Origin: Candidatus Nomurabacteria bacterium | GTDB taxonomy: Bacteria; Patescibacteriota; Minisyncoccia; Phycocordibacterales; UBA9973 | Direction of reading: 5' to 3' | DNA length: 64,000 bases | NCBI GenBank assembly: GCA_963832025.1 | Contig: CAWHSF010000003.1 | Location: 294,606-358,605, forward strand | In this document: piece by piece, positions 16,742-61,587 of the stretch | Layout of the letters: the number at the start of each line of letters is the position of its first letter | Numbering within the stretch: position 1 is the first letter of the stretch | Program-made: the position numbers and the translations under genes | The notes under the pieces: model-generated | What the model was told of the DNA's origin: nothing | What the model saw: the letters and a program-made list of their open reading frames with translations, nothing else | Databases searched by the model: none

Positions 16742-16798
16742 CACCTCACCCGTCTTTGGCACCCTCTCCTTGGCAAGGAGAGGGGCTGGGGTGGGGTG
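16742..16798. repeat. repeat family F copy F1 (between divergent adk genes)
   Basis: cacctcacccgtctttggcaCCCTCTCCTTGGCAAGGAGAGGGgctggggtggggtg. Confidence 0.75.
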
Positions 16799-16834
16799 TT
16801 TGATTTTTGTGCCAAATTTCTGTATTGTGTATAT

Positions 16835-17422
16835 ATGACTCCACAAACGTTCGTATTTTATGGTATTGCTGGTGCTGGGAAGGGAACCCAGATTAAACTC
16901 CTAACGGAACTTCTAAAAAATAAAGGCGGACTAGAGACTGTCTATGCATCTCCTGGCAATGAATATAGAAGGATAACACAATCTGACGATTACATAGGTT
17001 CTTTAGTGAAAGGCCCTCTTTCTAGAGGTGAGCTTCTTCCAGGATTTTTAACCGATTCAATCATAGCTAATATTTTTATTTCTTTTTTAACTCCGGAAAA
17101 AAATTTAATTGCGGATGGATATCCTCGTGCAGTGGATCAATCTGTTAGTTTTGAGAAAATGATGGGATTTTTTGAAAGAAAAAATGTGAAAATTATTTAT
17201 ATTGAAATATCCAAAGAAGAAGCAATAAAGAGATTAAAACTAAGAGGAAGACATGACGACACCGACGAAGGAATAGCTAAAAGATTTGACGAATATGTAA
17301 AAAGCGTAGTTCCATCAATGAATTATTTTAAAGAGAAAGAAGGATATAAAATATATACTATTAATGGAGAGCAGAGCGTGGAGGATGTGCACAAAGAGAT
17401 TGTATCTGCTGTCGAACTTTAA
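16835..17422 (+). CDS. adk: adenylate kinase
   Basis: FVFYGIAGAGKGTQ P-loop; RGRHDDTDE LID region; canonical position after secY. Confidence 0.9.
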   Translation: MTPQTFVFYGIAGAGKGTQIKLLTELLKNKGGLETVYASPGNEYRRITQSDDYIGSLVKGPLSRGELLPGFLTDSIIANIFISFLTPEKNLIADGYPRAVDQSVSFEKMMGFFERKNVKIIYIEISKEEAIKRLKLRGRHDDTDEGIAKRFDEYVKSVVPSMNYFKEKEGYKIYTINGEQSVEDVHKEIVSAVEL

Positions 17423-18193
17423 ATGATAATAATTAAAACACCGGAACAAATAGAAAAAATTCGCGAAGGCTGTAAAAACCTCGCAATTGTTTTGCATAAG
17501 GTAAAAGAAAAAGTTGCTCCAGGAATTTCCACCAAGGACTTGGATATTTACGCGGAAAAATTAATTCGTGAAATGGGTGATACCCCTGCTTTTTTGAATT
17601 ATCGTCCGGAAGGTGCTTCCACGCCATTCCCCGCGACACTTTGTGTTTCCGTGAATGATGAAGTGGTGCACGGTATTCCTAGCAAAAATAGAATTTTTAA
17701 AGAAGGTGATATAGTTTCGCTTGATTTGGGAACCAACCATCAAGGTTTTTTTACCGATATGGCTTTGACTGTGCCGGTCGGAAAAGTGAGTGACAAGAAT
17801 TTAAAGCTCTTGGAAGTTACCGAGAAATCTTTACAAGTTGGCATAAGTGTAGCTGTCGCAGGAAATACTGTTGGCGATATCGGTTATGCAATTGAAAGTT
17901 ATATCCACTCGGAAGGGCAATATGGAATCGTGGAAGTTCTGTCTGGGCATGGTGTGGGCGTAGCTATCCATGAGGACCCTTATATTCCAAACTTTGGGAA
18001 ACCAGGTAAAGGAGCCAAGCTTTTGCCAGGAATGATTATTGCCATTGAACCGATGGTAAATTTAGGGACTAAAAATGTCACCATAGATGAAGATGATTGG
18101 ACTTTTCGTACTGCTGATAAAAAACCCTCCGCGCATTTTGAACATACTATTTTGATTACCGAAGGCGAGCCAGAAATTCTGACACAAATATAA
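17423..18193 (+). CDS. map: type I methionine aminopeptidase
   Basis: SVNDEVVHGIP...SLDLG...GHGVG..HE pita-bread metal ligands. Confidence 0.93.
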   Translation: MIIIKTPEQIEKIREGCKNLAIVLHKVKEKVAPGISTKDLDIYAEKLIREMGDTPAFLNYRPEGASTPFPATLCVSVNDEVVHGIPSKNRIFKEGDIVSLDLGTNHQGFFTDMALTVPVGKVSDKNLKLLEVTEKSLQVGISVAVAGNTVGDIGYAIESYIHSEGQYGIVEVLSGHGVGVAIHEDPYIPNFGKPGKGAKLLPGMIIAIEPMVNLGTKNVTIDEDDWTFRTADKKPSAHFEHTILITEGEPEILTQI

Positions 18194-18339
18194 AAACTCT
18201 TTCTTGGCGTACTTTTTATAAAGCAATCTATCTCCGCAAGCTTGCGGAGCGAACTGCTCGGCTACCCGCCTGTGCAAGGCTTTCTAAAAAGTACGCCTTC
18301 GACGAGTTTTTAATTTGCTTCTTTTATTGTATAATTTAG

Positions 18340-20442
18340 TTGATGGAACCATCCTTTTTTAAGGAAATGCCGAAGTTTAAGACTCCCGAGGAGGAGCTCG
18401 ATTATTTGCGCGCGCATGTGAAAGCACGTGAAGAAGAATTAATCAGCATTGGGCACATAGAAAATGCAGGAGACAATGCCGCCTCCGAAGTTATCGGCGC
18501 ATATAAAAATATACCGGCAGAGAAACTAATTCATAAAGATAATATTATAAAAGAAAAAGAAGCCAAAGGTATCGTTTTGGCTCTGCGCCCGGAGACTCAC
18601 GACAGTGTGATGGAGGAACTTTTGGGGATTGTAGTTACTAAAGGAGTTCGCAATGCTCTTTCGGTGGCAGAAGAGATGGATAATCCCCATATTGATGATG
18701 ATTTTCACAGAATTCTCATTCAATATTTAAAAACCGGACAAACCATGTTGGATTTTAAAGAAGGCTCGCCGGTTTACAAAGCTCTCAATATGACTCTTTT
18801 TGAAATTACGCTTCCGCCTCCGGCTGAAGGAGGAGATGCAGCGAAAGGTTTTAAAGAATTTATCGGCGCGATGGAACAATTTTACGCCGGCATGCAATCT
18901 ATCGGCGAAGGTAAGTATAACGAAAAAGAAAACTATTTTGTTTTGGAGGTGGGGCTTGGGATGAATACCGACGAGGTAGTGGTTTATGCGGCAATTCCAA
19001 ACAAACATCTATCTCTTTTTGAAAAACAAATCTTGGCTTTTTATCACAATGCAAAGATTCGTGAAGCGACTGACGACTACAATGTTTTCAACGAAAATGG
19101 CAATTCTGTCGGTGCTTATGCTGTCCTTTCTGAGCGTGGAGTGATGCCGATAAAAACCTATGACAATATTGACCATGACCCGATGAATCCGATTTTAAAT
19201 GTTTTTTCTCAATTAAAAACGATCGGCGAAGGTGCCGCGATTCAATTGGTGGTTGTGCCAGCCGGTGAAAAGTTTATCAATGAGTTTCATATGATTCTGG
19301 ACGATGTGAAAGATGGTTATTCGGTCAAACATGCATCCGATAATTTTTATAAGTTCAACAAAGCCTTTTTGAAAGTGGGCAAAGATTTTGTTTTTGGACA
19401 TAAAGAGAAAGAAGAAGAGCCCAAAGAAAAATATATGAAAGGCAGACGCGCGGTAGATGAGGGCGCGGCGGAAAAAATCGGCAACAAAATAAAAAGCACA
19501 ATCATGAAAGCTAATATTCGCGTGGTTGCCTCCGGGCAAACGCTCGAACGTGCCGAAGCTATTTTGCGCGAGATAGAATCTTCCTTCAATCAATTTTCGG
19601 AAGCAGCTAGCAACTCTTTTGTTTTTGAACAAATGAGAGGCAGTGAACTGAAACAACTCTTTCACGATTTTTCTTTTCGTACATTTAAGCCTGATAAGAC
19701 GTTGCCGTTAAATTTAAAAGAATTATCTTCAGTCTTTCATTTCCCAGTAGGTATTGATAGTCAACCACAATTGAAAGAAGCGAAAGCCGGTATCGCTCCG
19801 GCTCCGATAGAGATGGGGCAAACGGGAATTATACTCGGAATAAACAGCTATCGGGGCAGAGATACGGAAATTCACTTGGCGAGAGAAGACCGCATGAGAC
19901 ATTTTTATGTTATCGGTCAGACAGGTACAGGTAAAACGAATATCATGCTCAACATGATTACGCAAGATATAAAAAATGGAGATGGTTGCTGTTATATTGA
20001 CCCGCACGGTACCGATATTCAAACAATTCTTTCTCGTATACCTAAAGAGCGTATTGACGATGTGATTTATTTTGACCCAGCCTATACTGCACGACCGATG
20101 GGGCTTAACATGTTGGAATATGACCCGAGATATCCCGAACAGAAAACATTCGTGGTAAACGAAATGATGGGAATTTTCAATAAACTTTTTGATATGAAAG
20201 TGGGCGGTGGAGCGATGTTTGAACAATATTTTAGAAACAGCGCCTTTCTTGGTGATGGAAGACCCGGAATCCGGCTCAACCTTGCTGGAAATTACCCGTG
20301 TCTTGGCCGACAAAGAATTTCGCGATATGAAACTTGCCCGATGCAAGAACCCAATCATCAAACAATTTTGGATTTCTGCCGAGCAAACAACCGGAGACCA
20401 GTCGCTCGCGAACTTCGTGCCTTATATTTCTTCCAAGTTTGA
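18340..20442 (+). pseudogene. P-loop ATPase of VirB4/TraD/HerA-FtsK (AAA_10/DUF87-like) class with ~450-aa N-terminal domain; N-terminal ORF fragment of a gene interrupted by two compensating 1-nt frameshifts (~20228 +1, ~20446-20479 -1)
   Basis: Walker A HFYVIGQTGTGKTN, YIDPHGT, FDP motifs; true continuation is in frame 2 (20207-20479) then frame 1 (20467-21111). Confidence 0.7.
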
Positions 20443-20466
20443 TAACTTTATTTCAGTAACGATATT

Positions 20467-21111
20467 ATGCGTCCGGTAGTGCTTCAACAAAACTCCGTTT
20501 TCAATTTTAGAAAAATCATGGACGAGAAAAAAATTCTTTTAGTTAATCTTTCCAAAGGAAGATTGGGAGATATTAACGCAAACCTTATCGGTTTGGTATT
20601 GGTCGGCAAGATTCAAATGGCGGCGCTTTCCCGCGTGGATATGTTTGGTAAACCAATGAATGATTTTTATCTATATATCGATGAGTTCCAAAATGTCACC
20701 ACTGATTCCATCGCTTCCATTTTGTCTGAAGCAAGAAAATACAGACTCTCGTTAAATATTGCGCATCAATATATCACTCAACTCGAAGATAATATCAAGA
20801 ATGCTGTCTTTGGGAATGTCGGCTCGATGGCTGTTTTCCGTGTCGGCACCGAAGATGCGACATTTTTGGAACCAAAATTTAAACCGCAATTTACTGCGCA
20901 AGATATAACCAAGCTTGATAATTACAATGCTTATGTAAATATGCTGGTAAATGGTCAGCCAACCAAACCTTTCAATTTAAAAACTCTCGCGCCAGAGGTA
21001 GGCAATGCGGAAATCGTGGATAGTCTAAAAGAACTTTCTTATGTAAAATTTGGTCGTGACCGCGCCGAAGTCGAAGCCGAAATCATGGCGCGATATAGTA
21101 CGATGGAATAA
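20467..21111 (+). pseudogene. C-terminal fragment of the same ATPase (Walker B YIDEFQN region)
   Basis: LYIDEFQNVTTDSIASIL...LNIAHQYITQLED; contiguous with 18340-20442 after frame correction. Confidence 0.7.
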
Positions 21112-21113
21112 GA

Positions 21114-21155
21114 CCTCACCCCCGACCCCTCTCCTTGTGAAGGAGAGGGGAGAGA
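21114..21155. repeat. repeat family F copy F2 (after ATPase gene)
   Basis: acctcacccccgaCCCCTCTCCTTGTGAAGGAGAGGGGagag. Confidence 0.75.
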
Positions 21156-21198
21156 AATTAATTTTGCAAAAAGAATTTTTTCTGCTAGAATACTTGTT

Positions 21199-21783: not shown

Positions 21784-21786
21784 AAC

Positions 21787-22335: not shown

Positions 22336-22339
22336 ATTT

Positions 22340-22885: not shown

Positions 22886-22911
22886 ATTATAATTTCAACT
22901 ATAATCTTTTT

Positions 22912-23355: not shown

Positions 23356-23363
23356 TTATTCTT

Positions 23364-23906: not shown

Positions 23907-23949
23907 TTTAATTTTTTCTCAATTTCATTCCAAAACAAAAAAAATCTTT

Positions 23950-24152: not shown

Positions 24153-24156
24153 TTCA

Positions 24157-26324: not shown

Positions 26325-26384
26325 AAATCAAATAAACAACATAAAGAAAAATCCCCTAGATGGGGATTTTTCTTTATGTTGTTT

Positions 26385-26726
26385 ATTTAGCTGCTGCTAC
26401 GACTTTTGCAAATGTTTTTGGATGATGTTCGGCAAAGTCGGAAAGAATTTTTCTGTCCAGCATTATGTTTTTCTTATGTAAACCATCGATTAACTTGGAG
26501 TATGATATTCCGAGTTCTCTGGCACCAGCATTTATTTTAATATTCCAAAGTTTGCGATTATGTGATTTCTTGTCTCTGCGATGCGCGAAAGAATAACTCC
26601 GGCATGCAAGAGCGCGTCTTTTGCCTGACGTTCCTTGGTACTGCGTCCATGGCGCATTCCCTTAGTTTGCTTCAAAACACTTCTCCTTCTTTTTAATGCA
26701 TGTACTCCTTTTTTTACTCTGGTCAT
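26385..26726 (-). CDS. rplT: 50S ribosomal protein L20, reading frame broken by -1 frameshift near 26597 (GGAAG->GGAG)
   Basis: MTRVKKGVHALKRRRSVLKQTKG then frame 3 SYSFAHRRDKKSHNRKLWNIKINAGARELGISYSKLIDGL matches L20 throughout. Confidence 0.85.
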
Positions 26727-26735: not shown

Positions 26736-26791
26736 TTCACCTCACCCCTTCGCCCCTCTCCTTGGCAAGGAGAGGGGTTTGGGGAGAGGTT
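26736..26791. repeat. repeat family F copy F3 (inside infC-rpmI-rplT operon, rpmI/rplT spacer)
   Basis: ttcacctcaccccttcgCCCCTCTCCTTGGCAAGGAGAGGGGtttggggagaggtt. Confidence 0.75.
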
Positions 26792-26985
26792 TAGCTAAAT
26801 GGTAATAAATGTGATTTTGGTTTGTTCTTAATAATAAAAGTCTGGCGTTTCTTACCGGCGAGCTCAGTGGTGCGGGATTGTTTTGCGTTGAAATGATTAA
26901 AGCCTGGTTTGCGAGAAAGAACTTTACCATTTTTGGTAAGTTTCAATCTTTTACTGTATGACTTGTTTGTTTTCATTCCTTTCAT
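26791..26985 (-). CDS. rpmI: 50S ribosomal protein L35 (alt start 26976)
   Basis: MKTNKSYSKRLKLTKNGKVLSRKPGFNHF L35 signature. Confidence 0.88.
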   Translation of the reverse strand: MKGMKTNKSYSKRLKLTKNGKVLSRKPGFNHFNAKQSRTTELAGKKRQTFIIKNKPKSHLLPFS

Positions 26986-27638: not shown

Positions 27639-28085
27639 ATGGCTAGTTATGCAGAAAATAGAAAAGCGAGGTTCAATTACGAAATCTTGGAGAAATACGA
27701 AACCGGTATTGAGCTTTTGGGTACGGAAGTAAAGTCGGTCCGGGCGGGGCAAATGTCGCTTGAGGGTGCTTTTGTCATCGTGCGTGGAGGTGAAGCATTT
27801 ATAATCAATGCGAATATTCCTCCATATCAGCCCAAAAATTCTCCAAAAGATTATGACCCGCTTAGAAATCGCAAACTTTTGTTAACTAAAAAAGAAATAG
27901 GGGAACTTGCAGGAAGCGAGAAAAACAAGAGTTTGACAATAGTGCCAATTTCAGTGTATAATAAAAATAGAAAAATCAAGGTAGAAATTGCGCTGGTCAA
28001 AGGCAAGAAAAAATTTGATAAACGCGAAACTATAAAAAAACGCGACACTGATCGCGAGATTAGAAGGGAATTCAAAGAGAGATAG
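27639..28085 (+). CDS. smpB: SsrA-binding protein SmpB
   Basis: NRKARFNYEILEKYETGIELLGTEVKSVR...KKRDTDREIRREF. Confidence 0.93.
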   Translation: MASYAENRKARFNYEILEKYETGIELLGTEVKSVRAGQMSLEGAFVIVRGGEAFIINANIPPYQPKNSPKDYDPLRNRKLLLTKKEIGELAGSEKNKSLTIVPISVYNKNRKIKVEIALVKGKKKFDKRETIKKRDTDREIRREFKER

Positions 28086-28100: not shown

Positions 28101-28156
28101 GACCTCACCCGCCCTAAAGGGCACCCTCTCCTTGTGAAGGAGAGGGAAAGGAGAAG
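28101..28156. repeat. repeat family F copy F4 (smpB-ssrA spacer)
   Basis: gacctcacccgccctaaagggcaCCCTCTCCTTGTGAAGGAGAGGGaaaggagaag. Confidence 0.75.
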
Positions 28157-28173
28157 CTCCGCTACAATATTTG

Positions 28174-28563
28174 GGGATGCAAGGCATAGACAGTTGGCCT
28201 ATTTGCATTGATGCATACCGAGTATGAACATAATCTCGTAAAAATTTGTTCAACAGCTAATTGCAAAATCAGCTTTTACAGCAATGCTTTCGCCTTACTT
28301 CGGTAATTCGTTAGCTCTTGCTCCAGCTTTCGCGTAAGCCAAGGTTGGTGTCTCTCGTATAGACTTCCGATATATACGTAGAGGCATAATATTATCGGGA
28401 TAGGGAAGAAGACCGCTCTGACTTTTTTCCAAAACAAAAGAGCTCGATTAAAAAATATTTGGCTCGTTTAAGAATTTTTTAATTTAAAACAAAAAGCGAG
28501 CTACGTATGTAGACTTCTCTGCTATAACCTTCTGCACTGGGATTCAATTTCCCACATCTCCAC
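28174..28563 (+). ncRNA. ssrA: tmRNA (transfer-messenger RNA), one-piece
   Basis: Adjacent to smpB; 5' GGGGAUG pairs with 3' CAUCUCC+A (G3:U wobble = Ala identity); T-arm UGGGA-UUCAAUU-UCCCA; PK1 region GAUGCAUACCGAG...CUCGUAAAAA resembles E. coli GGUGCAUGCCGAG...CUCGUAAAAA; candidate tag ORF GCA(28263)...SLALAPAFA-UAA(28337); -10 TACAAT at 28164. Confidence 0.75.
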
Positions 28564-28609
28564 AATTTTTTTATTTTACTACCATTGTTTTTGATGGTAT
28601 TATTTTAAT

Positions 28610-31178: not shown

Positions 31179-31252
31179 CCGTCCTTAGCTCAGCTGGTTA
31201 GAGCACAGAGCTTATACCTCTGGGGTCCTTGGTTCGAATCCAAGAGGACGGA
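31179..31252 (+). tRNA. tRNA with anticodon UAU (Ile2-type AUA decoder), C1:G72 acceptor end
   Basis: Cloverleaf: acceptor CCGUCCU/AGGACGG, D GCUC/GAGC, anticodon stem CAGAG/CUCUG loop CUUAUAC, T CUUGG-UUCGAAU-CCAAG. Confidence 0.75.
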
Positions 31253-31267
31253 CAAGCAAATAAATTT

Positions 31268-39192: not shown

Positions 39193-39263
39193 CCTCCAGA
39201 CGTTGGATTGACGTTGGACACCCGCCAAAGGCGGATGTCCAACGTCTGGAGGTTTATCCACAA
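39193..39263. repeat. palindromic repeat family A, extended copy A6
   Basis: CCTCCAGACGTTGGAttgacgTTGGACACCCGCCaaaGGCGGATGTCCAACGTCTGGAGGTTTATCCAC. Confidence 0.8.
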
Positions 39264-39277
39264 GTAAATTTAAAGTG

Positions 39278-39364
39278 CGGAGAGAGAGGGATTCGAACCC
39301 TCGGTCCTTTTAAGGGGACGACAGTTTAGTAAACTGTTGGTTTAAACCACTCACCCATCTCTCC
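39278..39364 (-). tRNA. type-II (long variable arm) tRNA, Ser-like, anticodon loop UUACUAA (apparent ACU anticodon, atypical)
   Basis: rc: GGAGAGA-UG-GGU..ACC-A-ACAGU-UUACUAA-ACUGU-long arm-CGAGGGUUCGAAUCCCUC-UCUCUCC-G. Confidence 0.6.
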
Positions 39365-39454: not shown

Positions 39455-39543
39455 GGAGCCGTGTCAGAGCGGTCTAACGTACCTCTTTGCTAAAGAGGCA
39501 GGGGCTTCAAAACCCCTCGGCGGTTCGAATCCGCCCGGCTCCG
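39455..39543 (+). tRNA. tRNA-Ser (anticodon GCU), type II
   Basis: acceptor GGAGCCG/CGGCUCC, anticodon stem CCUCU/AGAGG loop UUGCUAA, long variable arm, T GGCGG-UUCGAAU-CCGCC; D-arm non-canonical. Confidence 0.7.
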
Positions 39544-39576
39544 CAGCTAATATTTCTTCTGTGTTATACTCAAAAG

Positions 39577-49701: not shown

Positions 49702-50954
49702 TTTCCTAATGCATTATGGTAAACTTCCTCTAGTTTTTTTACACTCTCGTGTATATCATATTTTTGAACCATCTTGAAGCTAACCTCACCCATCCTCTCT
49801 CTCAATTCTTTGTCTTGAATTAATTTCAAAGTTTGCTCGGCTAGGTCTTTAGGATCCAAGGTTTTAAACAAAAATCCGTTGCCATTCACAAAATAACGGG
49901 AAGCGCTCATTTTTGTATCGGAAATAATAATCGGTTTTCCACAAGCCATCGCTTCAAGCACCACCATACCTTCCAGTTCCGCGAGCGACGGCAAAATAAA
50001 AATATCGCAGGCATTAAAAGCCAAGATTTTATCTTCTTCACTGACCAATCCTAAAAAGGTGATATGTTTTCGCATTTTTAGATTGTCCACTAATTTTTCT
50101 AATTTATTTCGCAAGATTCCACCGCCCGCAATCATTAGATACACATTAGGATTTACTTTGAGTATCTCTGGTATTGCTTTGATGAGTGTATCCACGGATT
50201 TTTCCGGGAACAGACGCCCGACGAAAAGCAATTTTATTTTATCTTTCGGTATTTCAAATCTTTCGTAAAAATTTCCAATTGGAAATTTCTGAAAATGTTT
50301 CAAATTTATTCCATTGCTGATGACAATCGATGGCTGGTCACGCTTGTTTAATTTATGTAGCAGATTTTTTGCCATTTCGGAGGGATAGATTATTATTTCT
50401 GCTTTACTGTAAACCCACATCAGATATTTGTTCCATAAGCTAAATAAAATGGGCTGAATAATATGGGGGGTGTCGGCAAATAAATTTTCCGGTTGCGAGT
50501 GCGAATGCGCCACGATTTTTATATGAAGTGCTCGCGCTGCTTTGATGGCGACAACCGCTCCCGACATTGGCAGAATAATATGCACGATGTTTATTTTTTC
50601 TTCCAGAAAAACTTTTTTTAATTCATTCACTGTCGGAAAGGCTAAATGCCAGCCGTTTGATTTAGGAATAGGAATACTGCGATAATGATAAAGCCTGATG
50701 CCATCGTAATAATCGTTGTTCGCGTGTTCCTTAGAGGTTGCTCCGACAAAAATGACATGATGTCCTTGTTCTTTTAATAATTTGGAAAATCGCAAAATAG
50801 ACACAAGCACTCCGGCTTTGTCTCCGCCAATCGGGTCGCAAATCATCGCGATATTCAATTTCCCGGTAGTAGATTTTTGCAATGCAAGTTTACTTGCGCG
50901 CTCTGCGCTTTGCGAAAACTCACTACCGGGTTTTCCTCTTTTTTCTTCAGGCAT
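49698..50954 (-). CDS. GT4-family glycosyltransferase
   Basis: EGMVVLEAMACGKPIIISD (EX7E motif), two Rossmann halves. Confidence 0.85.
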   Translation of the reverse strand: MPEEKRGKPGSEFSQSAERASKLALQKSTTGKLNIAMICDPIGGDKAGVLVSILRFSKLLKEQGHHVIFVGATSKEHANNDYYDGIRLYHYRSIPIPKSNGWHLAFPTVNELKKVFLEEKINIVHIILPMSGAVVAIKAARALHIKIVAHSHSQPENLFADTPHIIQPILFSLWNKYLMWVYSKAEIIIYPSEMAKNLLHKLNKRDQPSIVISNGINLKHFQKFPIGNFYERFEIPKDKIKLLFVGRLFPEKSVDTLIKAIPEILKVNPNVYLMIAGGGILRNKLEKLVDNLKMRKHITFLGLVSEEDKILAFNACDIFILPSLAELEGMVVLEAMACGKPIIISDTKMSASRYFVNGNGFLFKTLDPKDLAEQTLKLIQDKELRERMGEVSFKMVQKYDIHESVKKLEEVYHNALGK

Positions 50955-50955: not shown

Positions 50956-51537
50956 TTATTTTTGATCGTTGGGCGGAACTGTTCGCATATTAAATTTATA
51001 TTTTCGTAAAAAGATGACTACGAGAAAAATCAAAGCGAGAACACTGACAAATGCCGCGTAATAATTCAAATATTTGCCGATTACCACGTAAGCATGTCCG
51101 AATAAAATTCCCAACATCAACATGACAAATGATTGGATGACGGAAATCGTCGCGCATGTCTTGAAATATTTTTTATACGGCACACGGATGGCGCCGGCGG
51201 CGACTAGTCCGGTAAAGCCGATGCCGTGTACGAGTTTGCTCATGGCGATGGCTTTTTTGTGATTGTCTCGAAAATATAATTTTGCTTTTTCCAGCTTCTC
51301 GTCCGTGACCTTGAAATATTTTAAAAATCTTTTCCCCGAATAACCCATGTAATAAATCAATCCATCACCGACGATGTCACCCAAAACCATGACAACATAG
51401 ACTAAAAACGGATTGAAAAATTTCAATGTCACCAAAAATCCGCAAATGACCGTAACGATTGGTCCTTCAATAATAGACAAGGGGATTAGAATAATATATT
51501 TATAGGTCAACAACAGTTGAATCATATATGAGAACAT
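50956..51537 (-). CDS. DedA/SNARE-associated family membrane protein
   Basis: 193 aa, VLGDIVGDGLIYYMG, DedA topology. Confidence 0.8.
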   Translation of the reverse strand: MFSYMIQLLLTYKYIILIPLSIIEGPIVTVICGFLVTLKFFNPFLVYVVMVLGDIVGDGLIYYMGYSGKRFLKYFKVTDEKLEKAKLYFRDNHKKAIAMSKLVHGIGFTGLVAAGAIRVPYKKYFKTCATISVIQSFVMLMLGILFGHAYVVIGKYLNYYAAFVSVLALIFLVVIFLRKYKFNMRTVPPNDQK

Positions 51538-51565
51538 TATATGGTATTTTAATGTTTTACCTACT

Positions 51566-51593
51566 ATTGACTTTTGTCTATTTTCTGGTATAT
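51566..51593 (+). promoter_or_regulatory. promoter TTGACT-16-TATATTGTAAA (copy 1)
   Basis: -35 51566-51571, -10 51588-51593. Confidence 0.45.
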
Positions 51594-51689
51594 TGTAAAG
51601 GAATTTCAGGTTCTATCGCAAGTTTTTTGACGAGTTTCTTGACATCAACCGAGCAAATTTTGCTCTCAACCGCTTTTCAGGAGATACCC

Positions 51690-52262
51690 ATGACGCATAA
51701 CTTTTTGGAGGGAATCTTGTGGATTCTTTTCTTCCTGGGGCCGCTGGGAACTATGGCCGCTCTCTGGGTTTTGCTACTAGCCGTTCCGGTCGGTCGCCGA
51801 ATCCTCGAAGGGAAAAGCTACGATGTTTCCCTCGCCTCAAACTACGGGGATAAGGGTCTGACGCTTATTGCGCTAATTGGCGCGTACATTATTTCGTTTC
51901 ACCAACCCATCTTCGTCCCGGCTTGGTTGCGAGACGGAGATGTTCACAGCGCGATCTACTTCGTGGCATTGATGTTTTGCTTCATCATCAGCGCTTTCAC
52001 CTTCAAAAAAAGAGAAGCAAACTTTGTGGATGTGTTCCGCGACGTGGTGATTGCGCCGGTGTTCATTCTCATGATAATCGTCGTTGTGCCTGTCATTTAC
52101 CTGAACGGCACATGGTTAGAAAAATCGGTAACAGTTACCTGTCTTATGCTTTGGGGGGTGCTGGGGGTTGTTGACCTTGTGACCGGCAGATTTAACCAGC
52201 AGCAATGGATGAGACAGCAAGAACAAAAACGTCAAGATAGGAGGCACTTCATCTTTTCTTGA
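51690..52262 (+). CDS. polytopic membrane protein, paralog A (start 51690 after cAGGAGatacccATG)
   Basis: ~5 TM; shares VIAPVFILMIIVVVPVIYLNGTWLEKS block with paralog B. Confidence 0.6.
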   Translation: MTHNFLEGILWILFFLGPLGTMAALWVLLLAVPVGRRILEGKSYDVSLASNYGDKGLTLIALIGAYIISFHQPIFVPAWLRDGDVHSAIYFVALMFCFIISAFTFKKREANFVDVFRDVVIAPVFILMIIVVVPVIYLNGTWLEKSVTVTCLMLWGVLGVVDLVTGRFNQQQWMRQQEQKRQDRRHFIFS

Positions 52263-52263
52263 C

Positions 52264-52378
52264 TGGTCCAGCTAGAGAACCGAAATTTCCAGCAGCGCAT
52301 CGGGCGAGATGTAGTGAATGTCTTGCCCACGAGCCCTGAAGCAGAAATCAGCTTTCAGGGTTTTTGTTTTGCCATTTT
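52264..52378 (+). terminator. ~115-bp direct repeat E1 containing two hairpins and T-run
   Basis: CGGGCAAGA..TCTTGCCC and CCCTGAAGC..GCTTTCAGGG+TTTTTGTTTT; near-identical to 53053-53168. Confidence 0.6.
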
Positions 52379-52430: not shown

Positions 52431-52517
52431 TGTAAATGAGTGTTCTGTAACAAAAGCAGATTTTTTCTCAATCGGGAGGAAAAATTTTGCTCCACAACCT
52501 ACCTTGAAGGAGGTCCC

Positions 52518-53051
52518 ATGTTAATTTTTCGGTTGCTCACAGTGTCGCCCATCTGGATGACAGCATTTGTGTTGTATATCGGTACCATCGGCGTGCTGTT
52601 TGTCTTGCGAGATAAGTGCGAGGGACTGTATTATCAAACCTCGTACTCGGCCCAGCTCGGCGATGGCGGACTGATTGTCATCGTGCTTATGGTCGCCGAG
52701 ATTCTGAAGCAGGGCGCATCCATGCCGACATGGCTACAGAGTAATTGGTATCACGCAATGGCCATTGTCGTCGCAGTAGCACTTGGATTGGTCTGGGTGT
52801 TTCGGGGTCACCCCAAGGAGTGGGCCGACTATTACCACCATCTCGTGATAGCGCCGTTACTATGCTATTTCGGTGTTACCCTTGTGCCAGTAATTTACCT
52901 GAATGGCACAAGAGGAGAGAAAGAATCCACAATCCTTCTCGTGCTTTTCTGGGCATTGCTGTGCTGGTACGATGCGACCGCCCACCGCCTTGACCAGCGG
53001 AATTATCACTTACTGGGAGAACATCTCGATGAGATGATGCGGGAGGGCTAA
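52518..53051 (+). CDS. polytopic membrane protein, paralog B (start 52518 after GAAGGAGGtcccATG)
   Basis: shares HLVIAPLLCYFGVTLVPVIYLNGTRGEKES block with paralog A. Confidence 0.6.
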   Translation: MLIFRLLTVSPIWMTAFVLYIGTIGVLFVLRDKCEGLYYQTSYSAQLGDGGLIVIVLMVAEILKQGASMPTWLQSNWYHAMAIVVAVALGLVWVFRGHPKEWADYYHHLVIAPLLCYFGVTLVPVIYLNGTRGEKESTILLVLFWALLCWYDATAHRLDQRNYHLLGEHLDEMMREG

Positions 53052-53052
53052 A

Positions 53053-53168
53053 ACAAAGTCCAGCTGGAGACTTAGAAACATCTAGCACATCGGGCAAGAT
53101 GTAGTGAATGTCTTGCCCACGAGCCCTGAAGCAGAAATCAGCTTTCAGGGTTTTTGTTTTGCCATTTT
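53053..53168 (+). terminator. direct repeat E2 (copy of 52264-52378)
   Basis: same two hairpins + T-run. Confidence 0.6.
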
Positions 53169-53178
53169 GAAATAATTT

Positions 53179-53883
53179 CTAATGCGCCACGGTGAAAGCT
53201 ATTACTTTTCGCGCGCCGGACTTTTTCAAAGTCCGGCGCGCTTCGTTCAAGGTCGCGCCGGTGGTGGTTATATCGTCTATCAAAATTATATTTTTCTTTT
53301 TGATTAGCTCCTCATTTTTTACGGCAAACGAGCCAACGATATTTTTTAATCTTATACTTCGGTCCTTGATGCGCGCTTGATGTTCGGTGTCCTTGGGTTT
53401 AATTAAAATATTGTTTGCAAGAGTAAATGTCATATTTCGCCCCTCTCCAAAAAAGGTTTTTGGAGAGGGGTTGGGGGTGAGGTTTTGTCTTTTTGATATT
53501 CTTACCAACTCCCGACAAATCAATTCCGCTTGGTTGAACCCGCGTTCACGGTATCTCTTGGCCGAAAGGGGAATAGGAATTAAAATCGGATTATTAAAAT
53601 TCTCCATGAGAGAAAGTTCCGAAAGCTCTTGCAGAATATTTTCATAAATATTCTCCGCAAAAATATTCGCCAATCTTTTCTTACCACTATATTTTAGAAG
53701 CCACAAAGATTTTTTGATAACCGGATGGCGATAATCATACAAAGGAAAAATCCATGTCGCGCTTTCACGTTCAGCTGTTCCCACTTCGGCCAAGCAAGTG
53801 CTACATAAATTTATCCCACTTTTACCGCAAGAAATACATTTTGGCGGGAACACTATATCCAATATGGTGTTTAAAAACCGCAT
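53179..53883 (-). CDS. comF: ComF-family phosphoribosyltransferase (competence protein ComFC-like) carrying in-frame palindromic-repeat insertion
   Basis: N-terminal CxxC..CxxC double zinc ribbon, C-terminal PRTase ILIDDITTTGAT; repeat F5 at 53437-53484 encodes NLTPNPSPKTFFGEGRN. Confidence 0.8.
   Translation of the reverse strand: MRFLNTILDIVFPPKCISCGKSGINLCSTCLAEVGTAERESATWIFPLYDYRHPVIKKSLWLLKYSGKKRLANIFAENIYENILQELSELSLMENFNNPILIPIPLSAKRYRERGFNQAELICRELVRISKRQNLTPNPSPKTFFGEGRNMTFTLANNILIKPKDTEHQARIKDRSIRLKNIVGSFAVKNEELIKKKNIILIDDITTTGATLNEARRTLKKSGARKVIAFTVAH
53437..53484. repeat. repeat family F variant F5, located inside comF coding sequence (in frame)
   Basis: tcgCCCCTCTCCaaaaaaggtttttGGAGAGGGGttgggggtgaggtt. 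Confidence 0.7.
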
Positions 53884-53912
53884 TTATGGTATAATTTTAG
53901 CACAGATATTAT

Positions 53913-55052
53913 ATGAATAATAAAAATTTGCTGAAAAATCTTTTGGCGAGCTTTAATAAGGGGAAGGGCGGAGATAGTGCTGTCGGCGTTGATATAGGGT
54001 CTTCGGCAATCAAAGTAGTTGAGATAAAAAGAAAAGGAGGTAAGGCAGTGCTAGAGACTTACGGAGCGATAGAGCTCGGTCCTTATGGTGACATGGATGC
54101 TGGACGTGTTACAAATTTGCCGATTGATAAAATTGTTTTAGCTTTAAAAGAAGTTCTCAAGCAGTCCAGCGTAGAGAATACTTCTTTGGCCATGTCGATT
54201 CCCATTCAATCAAGTTTGATTTTTACTATTGAGCTTCCAGAAACCGTCGGCGATACTGAAATAGCTGCCATTGTCCCCACTGAAGCTCGCAAATATATTC
54301 CAGTTCCGATTACCGAAGTTTCAATTGATTATTTTGTGTTACCCAAAAAAGAAGCTTCTTTTTCGGAAATGAATGCTGAGCCAAGCAGTGCCGATAAAGC
54401 TAAAGCGCAGACAGAAAAAATAAATGTTTTGGTAATTGCTACGCAAAACGATGCCGTGGCAAAATATCGTTCAATTATTTCGCAGTGCAATTTTGATGCT
54501 TCCTTTTTTGAAATTGAGATTTTCTCTTCTATTCGCGCAAATTTTGAGCACGAATTATCGCCAGTCTTACTGGTGGACTTTGGCGCATCTCGCACCAAGC
54601 TTTCGATTGTTGAATTTGGTTTGGTGAAGACCTATCACACGATAGACAGAGGCGGAGCTGATATTTCCAATTCTATCGCGCAGTCTTTAAATATTTCTTT
54701 TACCGAAGCCGAAAAAATGAAAAAGGAGTTTGGGTTTTTTGAAAATCCGGCGGAAAAAAGTTTGAGTGACATCATTAAAATTCATATCAATGATATTTTT
54801 TCCGAGACCAATAATGTTTTGTTGGGATATGAAAAGAAATATAACCGCACTATCAGTAAAATCATATTCACCGGAGGAGGTTCGCTCTTAAAAGGGCTGA
54901 AAGAAGTTGCAGCCAATAATTTTCAAACAGAAATAGAAGTCGGTCGTCCATTTTCCAAAGTCGGTGCACCGGAGTTTTTGGAAAAGGTTTTAGATACCAT
55001 GGGGCCGGAATTTGCCGTTGCTCTCGGACTCGCACTACGAAAATTGCAATAA
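53913..55052 (+). CDS. pilM: type IV pilus assembly protein PilM (actin-like ATPase)
   Basis: VGVDIGSSAIKVVEI... actin fold; precedes pilN/pilO. Confidence 0.85.
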   Translation: MNNKNLLKNLLASFNKGKGGDSAVGVDIGSSAIKVVEIKRKGGKAVLETYGAIELGPYGDMDAGRVTNLPIDKIVLALKEVLKQSSVENTSLAMSIPIQSSLIFTIELPETVGDTEIAAIVPTEARKYIPVPITEVSIDYFVLPKKEASFSEMNAEPSSADKAKAQTEKINVLVIATQNDAVAKYRSIISQCNFDASFFEIEIFSSIRANFEHELSPVLLVDFGASRTKLSIVEFGLVKTYHTIDRGGADISNSIAQSLNISFTEAEKMKKEFGFFENPAEKSLSDIIKIHINDIFSETNNVLLGYEKKYNRTISKIIFTGGGSLLKGLKEVAANNFQTEIEVGRPFSKVGAPEFLEKVLDTMGPEFAVALGLALRKLQ

Positions 55053-55129
55053 GGAAGCCGGAATAACGTCGGAGTTATACACAATTTGCTTCTTTAAAAG
55101 TTGCTTTTGTTATATAATATTGGAGTAGA

Positions 55130-55732: not shown

Positions 55733-55736
55733 TTTT

Positions 55737-56375: not shown

Positions 56376-56382
56376 CAAACAC

Positions 56383-56873: not shown

Positions 56874-56962
56874 TTAGATACGAGTCCCGTTAGAAATAAC
56901 GAAAACTTCTCAAGTAGGTTATAATAAATGAGTATTAATAATTAATATAAATTTCTAACGGG

Positions 56963-58706
56963 ATGAGTTTTTTAGAAGAATTAGCCAAAAAGGGTTTAAT
57001 AAATGGAAACCAAATAGGTGAAATTAAAAATCGCGCAAACGAAGATTTTGGTGGCGATATCGAGAAAACACTCATCGAATCCGGTGTTCCAGAAGAAAAA
57101 ATTCTTGAAACAAAAGGAGAATATTTGGGGTTGCCGGTCAAGCAAATAAATCTTCAAGGAATGTCTTTTGATGTATTGAAATATATTTCCGAAGATTCTG
57201 CTTCACATTATAATTTTGTGCCGATAGAGTTAAGAGATGGAGTGCTAGAAGTTGGAGTGATAGACCCGGAGAACATCCAAGCGATGGATGCTCTGCAATT
57301 TATTTCCAATAAAATAGGTATTCCTTTTAAAATTTTTCTTATTTCGAGGAGTGATTACGACAGTGTCATGCAGAGTTATAAAGGCTCGGCAGTCAAGTGG
57401 AGGAATCTTTAAAAGAAATAAAACAAGAAGAAAATGAAGACGTGAAAGGTGTGAACGAAGAGAGTCTTAGCAAGGAAATTAAAAATATAAAAACAAAAGA
57501 GGAGGCAAAAATTACTGAAGCTGCGCCAGTTATAAAAATTGTTGCGGTTATTTTGCGTAATGCTCTAGAAGGAGGTGCTTCGGATATACATATTGAATAT
57601 AATGGTGAAAAAGTAAAAGTGCGTTTTCGTGTGGATGGTATATTGCACACCTCTATCGTTTTACCATCAAATGTTTACAATGGAATCGTTGCTCGTATAA
57701 AAATTTTATCCAAACTTAGATTGGACGAAAAACGCAAACCGCAAGATGGTTCTTTCAGTGCCAACATTGATGATAGAAAAATTGATTTTCGTGTTTCCAC
57801 CATGCCGGCATATTATGGCGAGAAGATCGTGATGCGTATTTTGGATTCCGAAAAAGGTGTTAAACCACTGACCGAACTCGGTCTTTCCAAAGTAAATTTA
57901 GAAATTATAGAAGAGGCAATTAAAAAACCATACGGATTGATTTTGATTACTGGTCCGACCGGTTCCGGAAAATCCACTACACTTTATTCCATGATGAATG
58001 CGTTTAGATAAAGAAAAAAGTAATATCGTGTCGTTGGAAGACCCAATAGAATACCATATGTCGGACATCAACCAATCTCAAATGATGCCGGAAATTGGAT
58101 ATACTTTTGCTTCTGGACTTCGTTCAATTTTGCGTCAGGATCCGGATGTGATAATGGTGGGAGAGATCCGTGATAAAGAAACAGCTCAACTTGCCATTCA
58201 AGCAGCTTTGACCGGACACTTGGTGCTTTCCACTTTGCACACCAACTCTGCTGTCGGAGCTATTCCTCGCTTGGTGGATATGGGAGTTGACCCATACTTG
58301 ATTGCCCCAACGTTGATTGTTTCTATCGCGCAACGTCTCGCGAGACTTACTTGTCCATCGTCGAGAAAACTCATGCCGATGGATCCAACTATAAAAATTC
58401 AGATTGAAAAACAAATGGAAGATTTACCGGAACAATTTAAACCAGCAATCAGTAATGAAATGTATGACACGGTTCCATCCGGTGAATGTCCTTCCGGTAC
58501 GCGAGGTCGTATCGCAGTATTTGAAATGTTTAAAGTTGATAAAGAAATGCAAGGCAGTGATTTTAAAAAGTCCTGTGAACGGTGAAATTTACAAACTAGC
58601 TCGCAGTAAGGGAATGTTGATGATGAGAGAAGATGCAATGCTAAAATCATTACAGGGAATTATTCCTTTTACCGAAGTTTATAACTTTAACAACGAAAAT
58701 GAATAG
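56963..58706 (+). pseudogene. pilB: type IV pilus assembly ATPase PilB/GspE, fragmented into 4 ORFs by >=3 single-nt frameshifts (~57395, ~58000, ~58545)
   Basis: T2SSE_N domain, LILITGPTGSGKSTTLYSMM Walker [37 protein letters not shown] zinc motif; junctions in short homopolymers. Confidence 0.8.
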
Positions 58707-58721
58707 TGTATAATTAATTTC

Positions 58722-58762
58722 CCTATAGTAGAACTTTGTAAAAGTTTCACTACGGGGTATAA
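58722..58762. repeat. mini family-C hairpin upstream of response-regulator gene
   Basis: ccctatagtagaactttgtaaaagtttcactacgggg (same TAGTAGAACTTTG...CACTAC arms). Confidence 0.55.
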
Positions 58763-58771
58763 TATAAATAT

Positions 58772-59173
58772 ATGGAAGGAGAAAAAAGAAAAATTTTAAT
58801 AGTTGATGATGATAGCTTTCTTTTGGATATGTATGCGCTCAAGTTCAGCCAGAATAATTTTGAAGTTTATGCGGCCAGTGGCGCGCTGCAAGCTATTGAG
58901 AAACTCAAAGGGGGTTTATTGCCCGACGTTATGTTGATGGACATTATTATGCCGGAGATGAATGGTTTTGAAATGTTAGAGCAAATAAACAAAGAAAATC
59001 TTGTGTACAGATTGTCTGAAGATAGTTTTATCCAACAAGAGTCAACAGTCAGATATTGATGAAGGTAATCGCTTGGGAGTGGCGGGATATATCGTCAAAG
59101 CCAACTCTACTCCGACAGAAGTGATTGACCAGGTGGTAAATATTTTAGAAAAGAAAGCCGTGGTGCCAAAGTA
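58772..59173 (+). pseudogene. single-domain response regulator (CheY/PilH-like) with frameshift(s) near 58990-59040
   Basis: ILIVDDDSFLLDMYA...DVMLMDIIMPEMNGFEML then other frame SQQSDIDEGNRLGVAGYIVKANSTPTEVIDQV. Confidence 0.65.
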
Positions 59174-59205
59174 AAATAATTAAGAATTAATAATTAAACA
59201 AGAAA

Positions 59206-60240
59206 ATGGATTATAAAAAAGAATTTGAAAATCTTGTTTTGAATGTTATCCAAGAAAATGGTTCGGATTTGCATTTGGGCGCCGGGCGCGTGCCGGTTAT
59301 TCGAGTAACAGGAGAACTTGATTTTTCTTGTAAAACATCCGGTTTTAACCCAAGAAGACATGCTCGGATTTTTAGATGAAATTTTAGATAAAAAAAAAGT
59401 TGAAAAATTTAAAGAAGAACAAGAAGCCGATTTTTCTTATGATTTTCGTGGAGAAGCCAGATTGCGCGGCAATGCTTTTTTTCAAAAAGGTTTAATCAAT
59501 ATGGTTTTTAGATTAGTGCCAAAAGTTAAAACACTGGAAGAGTTGCATTTGCCTAAAATTTTAGCTGATTTAACTCGCAAAAAACAAGGATTTTTTCTGG
59601 TTGTCGGTCCTGTCGGACAAGGTAAATCAACTACTTTGTCCTCAATGGTTAATTTAATAAACAATGAACAGGCGCGCCATATTGTGACCATCGAAGATCC
59701 GATTGAGCATCTTTATGTTGCCAAATAAATCCATCATCAATCAACGTGAAGTCGGTATTGATACCAAAGATTTTCATATTGCTCTCAAAGAAGTTTTTCG
59801 TGAAGATGTGAATGTTATTTTAATTGGTGAAATGCGTGACGCAGAAACTATTTCTACAGCGGTGACGGCCGCGGAGACAGGACATCTCGTGCTTTCAACT
59901 TTACATACCAATACCGCTTCGCAAACAATCGATAGAATAATCAATTCTTTTCCGGGCGACTCAACAAGACCAAATTCGCAATCAGCTCGCCTCTTCACTT
60001 CTCGGTATTTTCTCTCAAAGACTTATTCCGAGAATTTCCGGCGGACTTATTCCAGCCTATGAACTTTTGTTAAACAATACCGCAGTGGCCAATTTGATTC
60101 GCGAAAAACGCACTCATGAGATAGATGTGGTCATAGAGACAGGGTCGGAACTTGGTATGGTGGACTTGAACCATTCTTTAATTGAGCTTGTGCGTGCCGG
60201 AGAGATTTCCATTGAAAATGCTTATCAGTATTCACTATAA
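59206..60240 (+). pseudogene. pilT: twitching-motility ATPase PilT, fragmented by >=3 frameshifts (first at T5 run ~59322)
   Basis: [94 protein letters not shown]. Confidence 0.8.
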
Positions 60241-60283
60241 TCCGAAAGGGTTTAGGAAACGATAAAGATTATCATAAAATATA

Positions 60284-61493
60284 ATGTTATTCAAATATAA
60301 AGCAATAGATGACAAAGGGGTAAGTAAAGAAGGGGAAATTGATGCGCCCACTCGCGATATAGCGATTGGCGGTCTTCAACGCCGAGGCTTGGTTGTTATT
60401 TCTATAAAAGAACAAGGAGAAAAAAAATCAATTTTTGACATTTCTTTTTTTGATAAAGTAAAACAAAAAGATGTCGTAGTTTTTTCGCGTCAAATCGCAA
60501 CTTTGTTTGAAGCGCAAGTTTCTGCTTTGAAAGCATTTACAATGCTGGCTGCCAATAGTGAAAATAAACTTCTCGGAGTTAAGCTCACTGAAATTGGAGA
60601 TGATTTACAAGCCGGAGTTTCCATCTCTGGTGCCTTGGCTAAACATCCAGACATATTTTCTGATTTTTATATAAATATGGTGAAAGTCGGGGAAGAGACA
60701 GGAAAACTCAATCAAACTTTCTTGCATTTGGCGGATTATTTAGATCGTCAATATGCTCTTAACCTCCAAAACTAAAAATGCACTTATTTATCCTGCTTTC
60801 GTTATTCTTACTTTTTTTGTAGTGATGACTTTGATGTTTACGATTGTTATTCCAAAATTAGCTGCAATTATTTTGGATTCTGGACAATCCGTTCCGTTTT
60901 TTACTCAAATAATTATTGATATTTCAAATCTGTTTATCAATTATGGTATTTTTATACTCATTATTTTGGTTTTTGTGGCTATTTTGGTTTGGCGTTTGGC
61001 TTCCACCGCTTCCGGAAAAGCATATCTTGATAGTTTGAAGCTTTCTACTCCGGTTGTCGGTAATTTATACAGAAAACTTTATCTCTCTAGGATAACGGAC
61101 AATTTAAACACCATGCTTTCTTCGGGTGTGCCAATCGTGCGAACACTGGATATTACTTCACAGGTTGTGGGGTCTGTGGTTTACAAAAATTTACTGGAAG
61201 AAGTGGCAGATGGTGTAAAATCCGGATTGTCTTTGTCTGTGGCTTTTGAAAAACATAAAGATTTTATTCCACCGATTTTAATTCAAATGGTAGCGGTTGG
61301 AGAGGAAACAGGTTCTCTGGGGGCGATTTTACATACCTTAACCCTGTTTTACGCGCGTGAAGTTGATGGTGCGGTCGATACGCTGGTTGGTCTTATCGAG
61401 CCGGTCATGATTGTGATTTTGGGTGTCGGTGTAGGGATATTGTGTGTTTCTGTGCTAGGGCCAATTTACAATATGTCGAGTAGTATTAGCTAA
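60284..61493 (+). pseudogene. pilC: type IV pilus platform protein PilC/GspF, split by frameshift near 60760
   Basis: two GspF repeats (INMVKVGEETGKL... / IQMVAVGEETGSL...). Confidence 0.75.
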
Positions 61494-61494
61494 T

Positions 61495-61587
61495 CACCAC
61501 CCCCTAGCCCCCTCCTCCAACAAGGAGGGGAGGAAATATTCTCCTCCTTTTGAAGGAGGAGTGCCCTAAGGGCGAGGTGGTTCCCCT
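61495..61587. repeat. repeat family F-like compound copy F6 (pilC-pilin spacer)
   Basis: caccaccccctagccCCCTCCTCCaacaaGGAGGGGAGG...CTCCTCCttttgaaGGAGGAG... Confidence 0.6.

Follow-up and report, generated by a model that had tools for sequence, protein, structure and literature searches.

The repeat motif BoxC/PIT/TMECO (Hoyne et al. 2000; Holder et al. 2015) has been known for about 30 years, without an established function and without proof that its triplex matters in vivo. It was named BoxC first, then PIT (potential intrastrand triplex) and then TMECO, with the consensus CCCTCNCCC N3-6 GGGNGAGGG N3 GGGNGAGGG and, in E. coli, the example CCCTCTCCCTGTGGGAGAGGGCCGGGGTGAGGGC; 3610 copies have been counted across 262 genomes of Proteobacteria, and cyanobacteria are rich in related GC-rich motifs (PMC4666352, Holder et al. 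2015). According to the same study (PMC4666352), TMECO forms a triplex that is stable in vitro, lies without exception between genes in E. coli MG1655 and occupies loci that are markedly more variable among strains than controls, where small deletions often leave a hairpin; its origin and mode of spread are unknown, and no tie to mobile elements was found in E. coli. The Rickettsia palindromic elements (RPEs; Ogata et al. 2000, 2002) are the well-known in-frame palindromic repeats (reviewed in PMC10969869). Here, we describe family F, a set of hairpin-forming repeats in a stretch of 64,000 nt (the window; GC about 40%) of a Candidatus Nomurabacteria genome, one copy of which, F5, lies within the reading frame of the gene comF.

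With a probability of roughly 0.7, we read family F as the Patescibacterial (Nomurabacteria/Paceibacteria) version of BoxC/PIT/TMECO, and F5 as a tolerated passenger structure that destabilises its site. The elements would then be retained at certain sites and render them unstable, without a demonstrated cellular function.

Three-block architecture of the family F repeats

The core CCCTCTCC-loop-GGAGAGGG was found in five copies in the window (F1 to F5, at 16762, 21127, 26754, 28124 and 53441); 8 strand matches were seen where 100 dinucleotide-preserving shuffles gave an expectation of 0. Together with a composite copy 6, the family is over-represented, dispersed and multi-copy, with 6 loci in 64 kb. 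The motif (C/G)ACCTCACCC lies 2-13 nt from the core in 5/5 copies, on the + strand in F1-F4 and on the - strand, the sense strand of comF, in F5. The repeat unit consists of the pyrimidine/purine hairpin CCCTCTCC/GGAGAGGG and a third block, the G-rich GGGGTGAGG, which is a mirror image of the purine arm. Read on the G-rich strand, the order in every copy is pyrimidine block, loop, purine complement, short loop and second G-rich block, with a first loop of 5-13 nt and a second of 2-13 nt, often with a mini-hairpin inside, that sets the third block off from the purine arm. Because the third block stands on both sides in full-length 60-nt copies, these resemble a nested palindrome, and a motif of three-block triplex type, not a plain palindrome, explains why the arm can be one-sided. 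The complementary outer arm is present in F1 and F3 only; F2, F4 and F5 are one-sided. A sequence-only reading of the window had described six copies of a simple palindromic hairpin that share an arm and its complement; the five-copy core of that description stands, while copy 6 departs from the consensus, the outer complement is confined to F1 and F3, and the scanner and mirror rule described below replace the simple hairpin by a triplex-type motif.

A scanner for purine-motif intrastrand triplexes (8-nt homopyrimidine stems; triads G.G-C, A.A-T and T.A-T; at most 1 mismatch) returned exactly the six family F loci in the 64 kb and 0 in 20 shuffled windows. The mirror rule was examined starting from pyrimidine/purine hairpins alone, which avoids circularity, in the window and about 1.3 Mb of Paceibacteria loci. 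In 42/72 hairpin-strand instances the purine arm had a perfect third block no more than 32 nt away, and in 0 with shuffled flanks; with up to 1 mismatch the counts were 53/72 and 13, respectively. The mirror rule prevailed over the direct-repeat (alternative-duplex) rule by 40 to 5, and at least 9 different stem sequences were each paired with a matching third block, as in GGAGAGGG/GGGTGAGG, AGGAGGGG/GGGGTGGT, AGGGAAGG/GGAAGGGT and AAAGGGGG/GGGGGATT. The covariation of stem and third block follows triplex geometry, not duplex geometry.

F1 (16742-16798, no strand) is a double-sided triplex-type element laid out as CACCTCACCC, a 10-nt spacer, CCCTCTCC-TTGGCAA-GGAGAGGG, GCT and GGGGTGGGGTG; its RNA fold has a minimum free energy of -39 kcal/mol (z -4.9). 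F2 (21112-21150, - strand) is one-sided, with the G-rich motif CCCCTCTCCTTCACAAGGAGAGGGGTCGGGGGTGAGGTC of pyrimidine, purine and second purine block (Y-R-R') on the - strand and the blocks in the order CCCCTCTCCTT-CAC-AAGGAGAGGGG-TC-GGGGGTGAGG. F3 (26738-26790, no strand) is double-sided, and F4 (28101-28146, - strand) is one-sided with a GCCCTAAAGGGC mini-hairpin in its second loop. Copy 6 (61495-61587, no strand) is a composite of CCTCCTCC-type hairpins, made up of two hairpins (beginning with CCCCTCCTCC and CTCCTCCTT), a GCCCTAAGGGC mini-hairpin and the outer arms TCACCACCCC/GGCGAGGTGG; it holds three triplex-compatible modules and obeys the three-block rule, although it deviates from the family consensus. 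Across the elements the predicted RNA hairpins are very stable (z -2.9 to -5.9), where the folding energies cover Watson-Crick folding only. An isolated match to CCTCACCC at 49784 was rejected as a family copy, having no hairpin. The purine arms AAGGAGAGGGG and GGTGAGGTGA of family F copies resemble Shine-Dalgarno sequences, and the pyrimidine arms TCACCTCACC and CTCTCCTT resemble the 16S rRNA 3' end.

Family F shares with BoxC/PIT/TMECO the three-block Y-R-R' order with nearly equal blocks (CCCTCTCC/GGAGAGGG/GGGTGAGG), the occurrence as GC-rich islands that are multi-copy, dispersed and sometimes paired in inverted orientation, the lack of an associated mobility gene, and loci that are hot spots of small deletions leaving hairpins and that differ between close relatives. 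It differs in its host, which belongs to the Patescibacteria or candidate phyla radiation (CPR) at about 40% GC instead of the Proteobacteria or Cyanobacteria, in longer loops, in having one copy in frame within a conserved gene where TMECO is intergenic in E. coli MG1655, and in one coordinated triad change per unit. Counted against the TMECO consensus, F1-F4 are 3 substitutions away, F5 is 6 and copy 6 (F6) is 5; the three of F1-F4 amount to that single triad change, from C-G.G to T-A.T. The three-block architecture is also very dense in a locus of the Dehalococcoidia, from an unrelated phylum of high GC (L077, 67% GC, 953-20015; 19 motifs in 20 kb), and is found in 58 IMG/VR contig stretches (L089-L146, putative viral; 38-74% GC), nearly all of them one-sided.

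The copy within comF and its orthologs

The gene comF (ComFC-type; 53179-53883, - strand, 234 aa) is divergent from pilM (53913-55052), an arrangement kept in all relatives examined, and the homologs of its product are labelled Candidatus Nomurabacteria or Paceibacterota. ComF contains the Pfam domains DZR_2 (double zinc ribbon) and Pribosyltran; the 4 zinc-ribbon cysteines, in a ribbon spanning residues 7-35, are invariant, and among PDB structures the fold is closest to 7p0h, H. pylori ComF. F5 occupies 53428-53484 on the + strand, the template strand of comF: a pyrimidine block CCCCTCTCC (53440-53448), a loop (53449-53461), a purine block GGAGAGGGG (53462-53470), TT and the third block GGGGGTGAGG (53473-53482), with the decayed other arm at 53428-53439. 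Its G-rich strand is CCCCTCTCCAAAAAAGGTTTTTGGAGAGGGGTTGGGGGTGAGG. On the mRNA the core folds into a 14-bp perfect stem (-23.1 kcal/mol, z -5.9).

F5 is in frame and codes for ComF N134-T152 (peptide NLTPNPSPKTFFGEGRNMT), and the open reading frame (ORF) stays open over its 234 aa, as the sequence-only reading had recognised. That reading had placed the peptide as a linker between zinc ribbon and phosphoribosyltransferase (PRTase) domain, a position that Pfam, the fold match and an AlphaFold (AF2) model do not bear out. The model has a mean pLDDT (predicted local distance difference test) of 85.9 and falls to 50-67 over residues 131-150, the lowest in the protein, and the peptide is accordingly modelled as a disordered surface loop inside the PRTase-like domain, after helix 118-135 and about 100 residues past the zinc ribbon.

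The assembly is rich in frameshifts, and the essential rplT (26532-26726), pilB (56963-58585), pilT (59206-60240), pilC (60284-61493) and a VirD4-like gene (18340-21111) are all split in the window, while relatives have intact genes, the pil genes in particular; the splits suggest assembly indel errors, or possibly pseudogenes. One might thus take the comF element for an assembly or sequencing artefact as well. In an independent short-read assembly of another run (L081; Logan, run ERR11523672), comF nevertheless differs by 3 SNPs (single-nucleotide polymorphisms) over 927 nt and has an identical element, and the element recurs at the same codon in orthologs from many samples, so that we give an artefact hardly any credence.

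In distant Paceibacteria and Parcubacteria, the ComF segment from GFNQ to the conserved Q(A/S) measures 34-38 residues, has no hairpin and shows ordinary folding energy. Because these distant orthologs lack a hairpin there, the unstructured state (LDKNxN/FKLE) is ancestral and F5 is an insertion. At the DNA level F5 and the intergenic copies are one element; the reverse complement of F3 would translate to NLSPNPSPCQGEGRRGEV, a peptide found in ComF of relatives. Alignment of ComF orthologs, which had been proposed as a check on whether the linker is lineage-specific, places the insert in 52/120 closest homologs and in none of the distant ones. A linker common to all orthologs over unrelated DNA, the pattern expected of convergence, was not what the alignment gave.

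The loop varies extraordinarily across the 120 closest homologs, in proteins whose remainder is 65-95% identical. The peptide HLTPPSAPLSLxRRGAGGEV is present in 31 of them and HLTP(N/S)PSPxQGEGCxRRGEV in 21, remnants of the element (GEV only, RRGAGGEV only, or HL only) in 6, a small palindrome in one or two copies in about 26, and no insert in 3. Since a canonical 60-nt element translates to HLTPPSAPLSLARRGAGGEV forward and to HLTPSPSPCQGEGCRRRGEV as its reverse complement, the two peptide families are the two strands of one element, which occupies the same comF codon in both orientations. In the DNA of nine comF loci the outer boundaries are equal (AAY/CACCTCACC ... GGTGAGGTN/TTY), with no target-site duplication.

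Comparisons between close pairs give the changes at this site in detail. In L082, the nearest relative (74% protein identity), the window's variant is found in complete form, and compared with it F5 has lost a 21-nt mini-hairpin and has a second arm decayed from CGGGGTGAGGTT to CGAAATATGACA; judged by this alignment, F5 appears to be an old, partly decayed copy. A further comF (L084), whose protein is 93.5% identical to that of L082 outside the loop, retains only GGTGAGGTT, and in another (L085) the loop of the first triplex motif encloses two more. Two comF genes of about 90% nucleotide identity (L147 and L148) carry unrelated cassettes between exactly the same flanks, and the ComF protein P0021 carries a clean LPAQAG insertion. 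The comF site is thus a hypervariable hot spot and not a one-off, and it behaves as reported for TMECO loci, with the behaviour recorded within a reading frame.

The variability raises the question of whether the peptide itself is adaptive, a Pro/Gly-rich linker under diversifying selection (for partner binding or phage evasion) with the palindromy of the DNA secondary. The loop is indeed extremely variable in an otherwise 90%-conserved protein, with all variants in frame. However, a single 60-nt DNA element, read on its two strands, accounts exactly for the peptides, and the same DNA recurs between genes; the prediction for the loop is disorder, and most of the family has no insert. We consider selection on the peptide very unlikely, and favour the ComF loop peptide as a tolerated, probably neutral, passenger of the triplex-type element.

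F5 had been called a rare case of a palindromic repeat tolerated as coding sequence. The 52 homologs with the element at the same codon, and the 6 with remnants, do not agree with rarity in this gene, and the RPEs provide a precedent (PMC10969869). Like the RPEs, family F combines palindromic repeats in frame within a conserved protein of a reduced genome, at a site compatible with the fold, with intergenic copies. RPEs are about 100-150 bp long and reside in dozens of unrelated genes, whereas family F elements measure 40-60 bp and are of triplex type; in the approximately 1.4 Mb examined, comF is essentially their only genic site, apart from one DUF559 C-terminal tail. The resemblance is thus one of behaviour (in frame, fold-compatible, also intergenic) and not shown sequence kinship.

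A peptide word search for other host proteins of the element gave no candidates. A 20-position profile of the insert peptide matched 7 sequences, mostly small ORFs, among 1.84 billion representatives, too few for a spectrum of host proteins; two of the seven (P0124 and P0125) have three TPLSLxRRGxGGEV stretches each. The DUF559 ORF (L087, 1606-2028) ends in ...QPHPSPLLKGEGNNSTKKKKPPFG, reading through a copy of the element as a C-terminal tail. Since such motifs can be carried as protein sequence, the recurrent metagenomic peptides 'HLTPPSAPLS..RRGAGGEV' and 'PSP..GEG' are explained.

Intergenic copies, signals and mobility

The gene contexts first described for the copies proved correct by ORF, Pfam and Rfam annotation. 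F1 lies between divergent adk-like genes, at 16104-16715 (-) and about 16837-17422 (+). F2 starts 1 nt past the stop (21109-21111) of a TraG/VirD4-like ORF and is followed by ndk, upstream of whose promoter-like TTGCAA-16-TAGAAT it is located. F3 fills the 64 nt that separate rpmI (stop at 26791-26793) from rplT (start at 26726) in the infC-rpmI-rplT operon of the - strand; its arm GAGGTG is 11 nt before the rplT start codon. F4 is flanked by smpB (stop at 28085) and the tmRNA gene (28173-28565), and copy 6 lies between the pilC stop and the promoter of the first pilin gene.

F2, F3, F4 and copy 6 begin 0-16 nt past stop codons, which together with the very stable RNA hairpins could suggest a signalling role in RNA or DNA (to stabilise mRNA 3' ends, to attenuate or to insulate), with the mid-comF copy a selected structure (a pause, a processing site or a protein-binding dyad). 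Several species also keep copy 6 at the orthologous place ahead of the pilin promoter, and the comF site has some hairpin in most close orthologs, including the small palindrome with its compensatory changes. Such changes may, however, come from template-switch correction, and the comF site is unstructured in all distant and some close orthologs. The elements also decay or are deleted, as in the F5 arm and in L084, L007, L018 and L023. No T tract was found in the F copies (F1-F4 were not flagged as terminators), while the genome does have canonical terminators, such as the bidirectional one at 26336-26382 after rplT; an intrinsic terminator was rejected for these GC-rich hairpins without a U tract. 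The orientation relative to transcription varies, and Rfam at gathering thresholds reported only the tmRNA and tRNAs in the window, with no match at any F copy. In E. coli, PIT elements acted neither as promoters nor as terminators (Hoyne & Maher 2002, cited in PMC4666352). A signalling role for the family is, in our judgement, distinctly unlikely.

The site between the pilC stop and the conserved pilin promoter holds orthologs of copy 6 in three relatives (L086, L003 and L005), a simple family F copy in L001 and another variant in L010; it is empty in L082, L085 and L088. In the spacer (window 61588-61680), downstream of the composite element, there is a perfectly conserved TGTGGATAA, which equals the DnaA-box consensus TTATCCACA in reverse complement. 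After it come a TTGC motif resembling a -35 element, an extended -10 (TGxTATAAT), AAGTCGAAAT and the first pilin gene. This arrangement is kept in L086, L003, L005, L001, L082, L085 and L088, with the repeat present or not.

Orthologous sites that are filled in some relatives and empty in others are what would be expected if family F were a mobile hairpin, similar to REP (repetitive extragenic palindrome) or MITE (miniature inverted-repeat transposable element) sequences, moved in trans by a transposase (of the RAYT, that is REP-associated tyrosine transposase, or IS200 type, or DDE), with comF the target of repeated, independent and site-specific insertions. The family is dispersed, multi-copy and patchy, with copies of any kind in only 20/89 ComF loci; both orientations occur at one site, copies are nested within loops, and the motif is found in the 58 putative viral stretches. 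Nonetheless, comparison of filled with empty comF and pilC-pilin sites gave no target-site duplication and no conserved flanking tetranucleotide, and Pfam found no transposase domain (including Y1_Tnp) in about 55 ORFs of the window. A hairpin-only model also leaves the one-sided mirror block unexplained, and the equal boundaries of all comF copies, with the deletion remnants, favour descent and in-situ change. For E. coli TMECO, too, no tie to mobile elements was found (PMC4666352). A classical MITE was rejected, there being no target-site duplication and three of five copies being without the second arm. Family F does share with REP sequences and bacterial interspersed mosaic elements (BIMEs) short GC-rich extragenic hairpins at gene ends, mosaic combinations and the lack of target-site duplication. 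It differs in that its elements in the window have no REP-type GTAG head at their ends, in that no RAYT is encoded in the window, and in the one-sided mirror block, which is not a REP feature. Mobilisation in trans is therefore an unlikely account of the family as weighed against membership of the BoxC/PIT/TMECO class.

Within 10 kb of comF in the relatives L001-L031 and L082-L088, all triplex motifs outside the gene are on the pilus-gene side, except in L007, where one follows immediately after the comF stop. No triplex motif was found within 10 kb on the far side of comF, among glycosyltransferase and hydrolase genes.

Several other features of the window were recorded. A non-triplex hairpin repeat family, GACGTTGGACAYCTGC-loop-GCAGRTGTCCAACGTC, sits within and near the ribosomal protein operon (2757-2793, 3960-3996, 4731-4767, 9926-9962 and 39198-39225), and a composite repeat of about 130 nt (TCCCGTACGAAATCGCGGACGC ... 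GCGTCCTATTTCGTACGGGA; 90% identity) occurs twice in the ribosomal protein cluster (7255-7386 and 11212-11347). The gap between rplB and rplV is about 3.4 kb (3914-7370), which is unusual for an S10 operon; it has hairpin repeats inside and ORFs without a Pfam match at 4163-4558 (-), 4540-4911 and 6084-6551. Just downstream of comF, two ORFs for paralogous membrane proteins (51528-52262 and 52440-53051) each have an 85-nt direct repeat behind them (98% identical, with terminator-like hairpins; 52294-52378 and 53084-53168). Two tRNA-Ser genes are inverted relative to each other (39277-39364, -; 39455-39544, +), one of them called with anticodon ACT, and Rfam at the gathering threshold reports only one of the two. 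The tRNA-Ile at 31179-31253 was called with anticodon TAT.

Probable instability of the sites and the place of the family

The instability of family F sites may be pictured as follows. On single-stranded DNA, the third block would fold back into the major groove of the hairpin through G.G-C, A.A-T and T.A-T triads. Exposure of single strands during replication, repair or transcription would permit the hairpin or triplex to form and polymerases to stall, and stalling could lead to slippage, to template switching between inverted arms with inversion of the core, and to conversion from other copies. Deletions, in-situ inversions, nested insertions and cassette replacements of the kind seen among comF orthologs would be the outcome. 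Within comF, selection would let only stop-free variants with lengths in multiples of three survive; some element loop sequences contain a stop when read in one of the two orientations, and the outcomes would be filtered further in this way. Template-switch mutagenesis at quasipalindromes and other non-B DNA would likewise explain the inversion, the arm correction, the hairpin-ended deletions and the turnover of cassettes at the comF and pilC-pilin sites, but it is a mutational process and not an element family, and its part here is our own suggestion.

A number of points weigh against family F as a destabilising member of the BoxC/PIT/TMECO class. The proposal gives no account of how new copies arise, and the mirror rule could partly stem from descent from a few founder families. 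An in vivo triplex has never been demonstrated, E. coli included (PMC4666352). The strict TMECO consensus has 0 matches in the window, where the loops are longer than the consensus permits, and a BLAST search of F3, a short query of low complexity, found no match in E. coli genomes; for these two reasons family F is filed as a diverged member of the class and not as strict TMECO. A neighbour-joining tree of loop-masked ComF scatters the insert states, with a resolution too weak to count gains and losses, which is why closest-pair comparisons were relied on above. Finally, the comF site of many relatives holds a 16-nt palindrome, YTRCGC-N4-GCGYAR, that is not a triplex motif and could point to selection for structure instead of mere tolerance. 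It is located in the comF loop of L003 (10394), L004 (4364), L008 (10400), L012 (10394), L016 (8929) and L148 (3205 and 3232), codes for L-R-H-G-V-D/N, is sometimes tandem, and is degenerate in L007, L018 and L023. In the loci that have it, it is found only at the comF site and nowhere else in their 20-kb flanks. Two compensatory pair changes (C-G/T-A and A-T/G-C) were seen, and the substitutions in the right arm are non-synonymous. Compensatory changes in perfect palindromes can also come from template-switch 'quasipalindrome correction'.

That palindrome leaves room for a more interesting reading, by which the middle of comF in this Nomurabacteria-like clade could be more than a tolerant loop, namely a dedicated structure cassette, in which lineages swap folded DNA elements and the folded single-stranded structure is what is selected. 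The cassette might hold the triplex motif in either orientation, nested triplex motifs, or the site-specific 16-nt palindrome kept by compensatory changes. The placement of triplex motifs on the pilus side of comF in relatives fits such a cassette weakly. We hold it to be an unlikely explanation. Were it true, the cassette could be a programmed pause, a recombination hot spot in a competence locus, or a signal in single-stranded DNA, the form of DNA that the ComF/ComEC uptake machinery handles.

Under the preferred reading, as tolerated triplex-type elements that destabilise their sites, family F extends the BoxC/PIT/TMECO class to the CPR/Patescibacteria. The comparative covariation of at least 9 stems with their third blocks is evidence that triplex potential itself is maintained. 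Because the constraint of the reading frame preserves deletions, inversions and nested insertions in readable form, the comF copy is a natural reporter, and across hundreds of metagenomic orthologs the comF site would make the proposed triplex-driven instability directly measurable.

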